NCBI RefSeq assembly: GCF_001677475.2
Contig: NZ_CP015229.1
Reading direction: 5' to 3' (one strand)
DNA: 64,000 nt
Origin: Escherichia coli
Lineage (GTDB): Bacteria; Pseudomonadota; Gammaproteobacteria; Enterobacterales; Enterobacteriaceae
The position numbers were made by a program, and so were the translations under genes. How positions within the stretch are numbered: the first letter of the stretch is position 1; each line of letters opens with the position of its first letter. Shown piece after piece: positions 15,005 through 15,223 of the stretch. Below the pieces are notes generated by a model that did no database searches, was not told where the DNA came from, and saw only the letters and a program-made list of their open reading frames with translations.

Positions 15005-15021
15005 CGTCTAAGCGTGACATA

Positions 15022-15044
15022 CCGGATGGCGAGTAGCCATCCGG
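15022..15044 (+). terminator. palindrome immediately after the mrcB stop
   Basis: CCGGATGGC gagta GCCATCCGG, 9-bp stem; no strong U-tract, so possibly Rho-assisted or a protein site. Confidence 0.4.
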
Positions 15045-15164
15045 TAAAATAACATCCCACCCAAAGTATTAACCCTTTCTTTTCATCTGGTTGTTTATTA
15101 ACCCTTCAGGAACGCTCAGATTGCGTACCGCTTGCGAACCCGCCAGCGTTTCGAATATTATCTT

Positions 15165-15205
15165 ATCTTTATAATAATCATTCTCGTTTACGTTATCATT
15201 CACTT
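15165..15205 (+). promoter_or_regulatory. Fur-box-like sequences overlapping the fhuA promoter
   Basis: ATAATAATCATTCTC and ACGTTATCATTCAC resemble the GATAATGATAATCATTATC Fur consensus; TATAAT at about 15169-15174. Confidence 0.55.
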
Positions 15206-15223
15206 TACATCAGAGATATACCA

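Follow-up and report, generated by a model that had tools for sequence, protein, structure and literature searches.

Positions 15005-15223 of the 64,000-nucleotide stretch of DNA analysed here (hereafter, the window) correspond exactly to the mrcB-fhuA intergenic region of the Escherichia coli chromosome. The gene identities and bounds proposed in the initial annotation hold, with the mrcB TAA at 15002-15004 on one side and the fhuA ATG beginning at 15224 on the other. When 801 bases around the region were compared with complete E. coli genomes, a match with mrcB and fhuA annotated beneath was present in 5424 of 5426. Window positions were converted by subtracting 152260 from the K-12 coordinate. 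From 15068 up to and including the start of fhuA, the intergenic sequence is that of K-12 MG1655, and all seven substitutions relative to MG1655 lie upstream of 15068, one of them in the loop of the hairpin described below. The closest known system is the Fur-controlled fhuA promoter of K-12 (Chen et al. 2007), whose sequence is identical from 15068 past the ATG and whose Fur operator has the same coordinate, falls in the same score class, forms a cluster of the same size and brings about the same repression; apart from the upstream substitutions, nothing functional separates the two. The features of the region are as follows.

15002-15004, plus strand: mrcB stop codon TAA (open reading frame 12458-15004; mrcB end annotated identically in K-12 and strain 118UI).
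15020-15046, plus strand: hairpin TACCGGATGGC-GAGTA-GCCATCCGGTA, perfect 11-bp stem, 5-nt loop, no U-tract.
15047-15124, plus strand: C-rich, G-poor tract, candidate Rho-loading (rut-like) segment by its composition.
15071-15085, plus strand: AACCCTTTCTTTTCA, agreeing at 14/15 positions with the distal site that HypT footprints on the fhuA promoter of Salmonella.
15132-15137, plus strand: -35 hexamer TTGCGA, from the promoter scan, fitting the mapped starts.
15156-15161, plus strand: -10 hexamer TATTAT, separated from the -35 by 18 bp and lying 7 nt before the mapped start.
15164-15194, no strand assigned: Fur cluster of 31 bp, with walker centres 6 bp apart at 15173, 15179 and 15185.
15168, plus strand: fhuA transcription start, 56-nt 5' UTR (Cappable-seq, K-12 167428, score 31.4).
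15170-15188, no strand assigned: primary Fur operator TATAATAATCATTCTCGTT, +3 to +21, 21.45 bits, including TATAAT at 15170-15175.
15188-15202, no strand assigned: TTACGTTATCATTCA, +21 to +35, 15/15 match to the proximal HypT footprint.
15212-15226, plus strand: Shine-Dalgarno-like AGAGA (15212-15216) and fhuA start codon ATG (15224-15226).

Conservation was assessed in the fhuA upstream regions of 80 Enterobacteriaceae species, located via the FhuA N-terminus, and TCAGAG and CAATGGCGCG were conserved around the Shine-Dalgarno-like and start segment. Two small open reading frames between the genes, 15069-15203 (minus strand) and 15132-15281 (plus strand), were judged spurious, and a permissive Rfam scan of 14500-15700 returned chance-level matches only.

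The intergenic region also varies in gene content. In approximately 570 of the 5426 complete E. coli genomes, a chaperone-usher fimbrial operon of four genes is inserted between mrcB and fhuA, at a location between window positions 15005 and ~15061 (seen at loci L097, 1697-6941, and L098). Another hairpin, CGCTCTCCGC-TTAT-GCGGAGAGCG, which also lacks a U-tract, lies 3' of mrcB in these genomes, and the promoter of fhuA with its Fur and HypT sites is unchanged in them. The same fimbrial arrangement was observed in several other genera (loci L016, L018, L022, L030, L036, L038, L045, L048 and L063). In Citrobacter amalonaticus (locus L012, 952-3000), an insert of ~2 kb between mrcB and fhuA contains two 167-aa open reading frames, the first of which is, by eye, putatively Hcp (type VI secretion tube)-like.

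The hairpin begins 15 nt 3' of the mrcB stop codon, with arms at 15020-15030 and 15036-15046. It had been noted, with no function proposed, as a palindrome with a 9-bp stem at 15022-15044; the palindrome is real, and its stem is larger than that, a full 11 bp. The predicted folding energy was -23.9 kcal/mol (z = -6.4), with 0 of 200 shuffled sequences being as stable, and the 64 kb contain this palindrome pattern a single time, as against 0.01 expected. The tail immediately after the stem, AAATAACAT, contains 1 T in 8 nt and the terminator scan made no call; in Escherichia the stem is followed by AAAATAAC, which has a T-run on neither strand. Because there is no T-run, the palindrome is not a canonical intrinsic terminator. 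The 78 nt that follow it have a C/G ratio of 2.33 (99.8th percentile of all 78-nt windows) and a G content of 11.5%. At Rho-dependent 3' ends, rut sites were found just downstream of stable stem-loops lacking a U-tract (Dar & Sorek 2018), and the mrcB end resembles these protective stem-loops in combining a stable hairpin that has no U-rich tail with a C-rich, G-poor tract. We infer that the hairpin is best read as protecting the mrcB mRNA at a terminator that depends on Rho. In the W3110 wild type, mrcB and fhuA were expressed at ~97 and ~19 units, respectively, and mrcB expression was the same in a delta-fur strain (Gao et al. 2023), which argues that most mrcB transcription stops before fhuA. 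The Term-seq tables of Adams (2021) contain a 3' end upstream of mrcB and no mrcB 3' end downstream.

A hairpin at this position is general, although its sequence and type are not. Among 68 other species in which mrcB adjoins fhuA, 67 had a hairpin of -12 kcal/mol or lower within 90 nt of the mrcB stop codon (median start, 10.5 nt), and the stems of these hairpins were unrelated in sequence and non-homologous. T-rich tails followed at least 34 to 43 of the 68, marking canonical terminators. The intrinsic terminators of Citrobacter, Enterobacter, Buttiauxella and other genera share with Escherichia the position after the mrcB stop and a comparable stem stability, but differ from it in having an A-tract before the stem and a U-tract after it as well as in the stems themselves. 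The frequency of hairpins with T-runs at the same site speaks for an alternative in which the Escherichia palindrome works as a Rho-independent terminator, or belongs to the REP elements, and does not protect an end produced by Rho. REP-like sequences are in fact present at the site in Salmonella and some Citrobacter, where they have a CCGGATGGCG...CCATCCGG core in common with the palindrome of E. coli (shared pattern T.CCGG(A/G)(T/G)GGCG...GC..A(T/C)CCGG). REP elements are characterized by a GCC(G/T)GATG head, an imperfect stem and a GGCCTAC tail. The E. coli palindrome has the REP-like core but is without the GGCCTAC tail, it is found at one locus per genome, and the REP consensus had no match anywhere in the window; together with the near absence of T in its tail and the silence of the terminator scan, this makes either alternative unlikely, and the protective hairpin at a Rho-dependent end is the reading that we prefer. 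The K-12 feature table contained zero repeat features in 50 kb, and the missing REP annotation was therefore not counted as evidence. A count of a median of two places per genome, which could have been taken for a repeat family, was rejected since the second BLAST place was the palindrome itself on the other strand.

Downstream of the hairpin, the promoter scan identified a plus-strand promoter of the form TTGCGA-18-TATTAT, and the position of this promoter fits the starts mapped in two organisms. Cappable-seq of E. coli cells that were not iron-starved placed the fhuA start at K-12 167428 (window 15168), the only others listed nearby being minor starts at 167477 and 167494. In a K. pneumoniae transcription start map, likewise from cells that were not iron-starved, the fhuA start (134 reads, 55-nt UTR) aligns to window 15169; the sequence upstream of it reads ...CGCTTGCC...TATTATATCGCCCG and the start is preceded by ...CGCTTGCCTTGCCTTCGACGTTTCGCCTATTATATCGCCCG. 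The TTGC of the -35 hexamer was kept in at least 90% of the 80 species, and every position of the -10 hexamer in at least 80%. The initial annotation had instead described two Fur-box-like sequences as overlapping a TATAAT element, with the implication that TATAAT is the -10. The element is present at 15170-15175, but it overlaps the first box only and lies at +3 to +8, in the left half of the Fur site. The Cappable-seq list has no mapped start near 167442, no usable -35 is found 16-18 bp upstream of TATAAT, and its first T is a C in most genera. Thus, TATAAT is probably not the -10, and the true promoter is probably TTGCGA-18-TATTAT, as the starts at 15168 and 15169 indicate. Since both start maps come from cells that were not iron-starved, some use of a TATAAT promoter upon derepression is possible.

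Just 5' of the -35 hexamer, at window 15102-15123, lies the site of an inverted repeat, CCC(C)T-N10-AGGG(G), which was found in 53 of the 80 species (loci L007-L082, -140 to -85 from the fhuA ATG). Its right arm has been lost in Escherichia, which has CAGATTG and not TAGGGGC.

For Fur, a palindromic 19-bp position weight matrix was constructed from 15 K-12 Fur sites of Chen et al. (2007), with fhuA excluded; the training sites were fetched from NC_000913.3 and checked by eye, and they scored 20.0-29.0 bits. The best match in the whole 64 kb was 15170-15188, a 19-bp inverted repeat of the 9-1-9 type that scored 21.45 bits, within the training range. Random sequence of 20 Mb yielded one score of this size or higher, corresponding to ~0.003 expected per 64 kb. 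The first of the two Fur boxes proposed earlier, 15171-15185, forms the core of this site. By contrast with the matrix, a count of matches to the classical 19-mer consensus gave 14/19 at 15167-15185 and also 14/19 at six other places in the window; as the count was not discriminating, the matrix was used instead.

The site is centred at 15179, i.e., K-12 167439, the coordinate at which Chen et al. (2007) described a 19.5-bit Fur site within a three-walker, 31-bp cluster that was gel-shifted by 150 nM Fur. Our walker scores of 4.6 (15173), 21.45 (15179) and -0.1 bits (15185) agree with the published three walkers in 31 bp. Under iron-replete conditions, ChIP-exo placed Fur peaks at 167456-167466 in MG1655 and 167456-167468 in W3110, and RNA-seq in the same study showed derepression of fhuA in delta-fur mutants of 8 of 9 strains, with log2 fold changes of +1.09 to +5.0 (Gao et al. 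2023). A fhuA promoter-lacZ fusion was subject to Fur-dependent repression, was derepressed without Fur, and was repressed more strongly during anaerobic growth (Beauchene et al. 2015). The Fur site was kept in 80 of 80 Enterobacteriaceae species, at scores of 15.4-21.4 bits and at -40 to -49 from the fhuA ATG. There is, by matrix score, one true Fur site, and it lies just 3' of the fhuA transcription start: with the start mapped at 15168, the site occupies +3 to +21, still within the DNA covered by RNA polymerase. The central proposal of the initial annotation, repression of fhuACDB by Fur from a promoter operator, is borne out by the matrix, the gel shift, ChIP-exo, the delta-fur RNA-seq and the lacZ fusion alike. 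Fur binding is seen in both EMSA and ChIP data, so the refuting outcome named by that annotation, a lack of such binding, did not occur. Fur control of fhuA is already known and is a textbook system.

Several further Fur signals were observed in the window. The MG1655 ChIP-exo table has two extra Fur peaks ~200 bp to either side of the fhuA site, at 14958-14994 (mrcB 3' end) and 15381-15412 (within fhuA), both without a Fur matrix site (best scores, 1.8 and -2.6 bits, respectively), and comparable flanking peaks occur at other loci of the same table. The second-best matrix match of the window, ATTGAGAATCATTCTGAAT at 36449-36467 (19.56 bits), coincides with the stop codon of map and precedes glnD by ~60 bp; the Fur ChIP-exo peak that was published for map lies elsewhere, at 37328-37340, where the matrix gives 1.5 bits or less. 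Within fhuA, a start site at window 16864 (K-12 169124; 191 reads) was assigned to fhuC (Kim et al. 2012), and a W3110 ChIP-exo Fur peak is found ~90 bp upstream of it, at 16771-16783, with a best matrix score of only 0.7 bits.

The second proposed Fur box, 15189-15203, is not Fur-like as a full site. Its best scores were -3.6 bits with the centre at 15191 and -9.4 bits with the centre at 15197, and none of the 19-mers centred from 15186 to 15205 exceeded -3.6 bits; the box contains one Fur half-site, GTTATCATT, and the ATCATTCnC of the primary site recurs in the box. What the segment does match is a published operator of another regulator. HypT (YjiE), a hypochlorite-sensing LysR-type regulator, was DNase-footprinted on the fhuA promoter of Salmonella Typhimurium at the sites TTACGTTATCATTCA and AACCCTTCCTTTTCA, and hypT deletion there resulted in twofold more fhuA transcript under HOCl (Jo et al. 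2019). The proximal footprint is matched at 15/15 positions by 15188-15202, which is the second box moved by one base, and the distal one at 14/15 positions by 15071-15085, the two standing in the same order around the promoter. The proximal match was kept in at least 90% of the 80 species. Binding in Salmonella was measured with Salmonella protein and DNA, whereas for the window the pair is recognized by its match to those footprints; on the strength of this identity, 15188-15202 and 15071-15085 would constitute a HypT operator pair in E. coli.

An exact 11-nt direct repeat, TATTAACCCTT, is present at 15067-15077 and 15096-15106 with a 29-bp spacing, and its first copy overlaps the distal HypT footprint match. 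The sequence CTGGTTnTTTnTTAACCC, between and over the two copies, is 70-90% conserved across genera.

We considered whether both boxes could be bound by Fur in tandem, with TATAAT at 15170-15175 as the -10, a start at ~15182 and Fur directly over the -10. The sequence 15180-15203 can be written as hexamers in 6-bp phase, ATTCTC GTTTAC GTTATC ATTCAC, and the matrix has local maxima every 6 bp, at 15185, 15191 and 15197, but all of these are at or below 0 bits, and the published 31-bp Fur cluster stops at 15194. Conservation does not set the boxes apart, since 15171-15203 is a near-invariant block over the 80 species in which the second box is as invariant as the first. The ChIP-exo peak (window 15196-15206) sits over the second box, its midpoint 22 bp downstream of the matrix centre; at 18 other sites of the same table, however, the offset ranged from -13.5 to +28 bp, and because 22 bp falls within this scatter the peak cannot separate one box from the other and was rejected as evidence for a second Fur site. 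The promoter drawing of Jo et al. (2019) also agrees with the tandem arrangement, as its numbering implies a start at ~15182, and thus a TATAAT -10, 14 nt downstream of the mapped start, a position credited to Huerta & Collado-Vides (2003). The mapped starts, the lack of a usable -35 and the frequent C in place of the first T of TATAAT speak against that position. The study of Huerta and Collado-Vides from which the TATAAT promoter derives is said to be one of computational prediction. Taken with the negative Fur scores, these observations render the tandem arrangement quite improbable, although a weak extension of Fur binding past the primary site in 6-bp phase may exist.

Under the reading that we favor, in which the primary site belongs to Fur and the second box to HypT, the 33-bp block 15171-15203 could tentatively be viewed as a composite operator, with Fur (+3 to +21) abutting HypT (+21 to +35), both downstream of the true start, and the two proteins competing or cooperating near 15188; we hold this to be a plausible arrangement but would not yet favor it. 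The notion that the invariant +21 to +35 segment acts as RNA in the fhuA 5' UTR (e.g., by binding an sRNA or as a standby site for the ribosome), and not as an operator on the DNA, is consistent with its being transcribed from 15168 and near-invariant in the 80 species, but is very improbable given that a protein footprint already accounts for the segment, that Rfam yielded no match, that the segment has no sequence variation in which covariation could show, and that loss of Hfq was reported to leave the fhuA transcript level and its cleavage unchanged.

Overall, it is highly likely that the region comprises a hairpin end of mrcB, a fhuACDB start at ~15168, a Fur operator at +3 to +21 and an adjoining HypT operator. 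The literature demonstrates that Fur binds and represses here, where fhuA transcription starts, and that HypT leaves its two footprints in Salmonella. The region is the known boundary of two independent transcription units in E. coli. The mrcB message would end at the hairpin at 15020-15046, whose most likely role is to shield that end once Rho has terminated transcription in the C-rich, G-poor tract behind it, and termination of this kind would keep constitutive mrcB transcription out of fhuA. Transcription of fhuACDB proceeds from ~15168 under the sigma-70 promoter TTGCGA-18-TATTAT. When iron is present, Fe2+-Fur occupies the strong 19-bp inverted repeat at 15170-15188, which is flanked on both sides by weak walkers in 6-bp phase, and because this site is inside the RNA polymerase footprint, Fur would presumably act sterically by blocking polymerase binding or escape; in low iron, Fur is released and fhuACDB derepressed. 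The segment from +21 to +35 (15188-15202) would serve as the proximal HypT operator, paired with the distal site at 15071-15085, if E. coli HypT binds as its Salmonella counterpart does.

The Fur finding itself changes nothing in the understanding of fhuA. The -10 that is commonly drawn for the gene, TATAAT, is in a 14-nt conflict with two experimental start maps, and once these maps are followed, the Fur site no longer covers the -10 but lies at +3 to +21. The Fur-box lookalike that matches a published HypT operator illustrates how easily AT-rich operators are mis-assigned by eye. At the mrcB end, the position of the terminator is conserved between genera while its sequence and type differ. 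If the composite operator is real, the signals of iron and of hypochlorite would come together on DNA that is itself transcribed and not at the -10, and on that reading both the databases and the HypT paper set the fhuA start 14 nt too far downstream.
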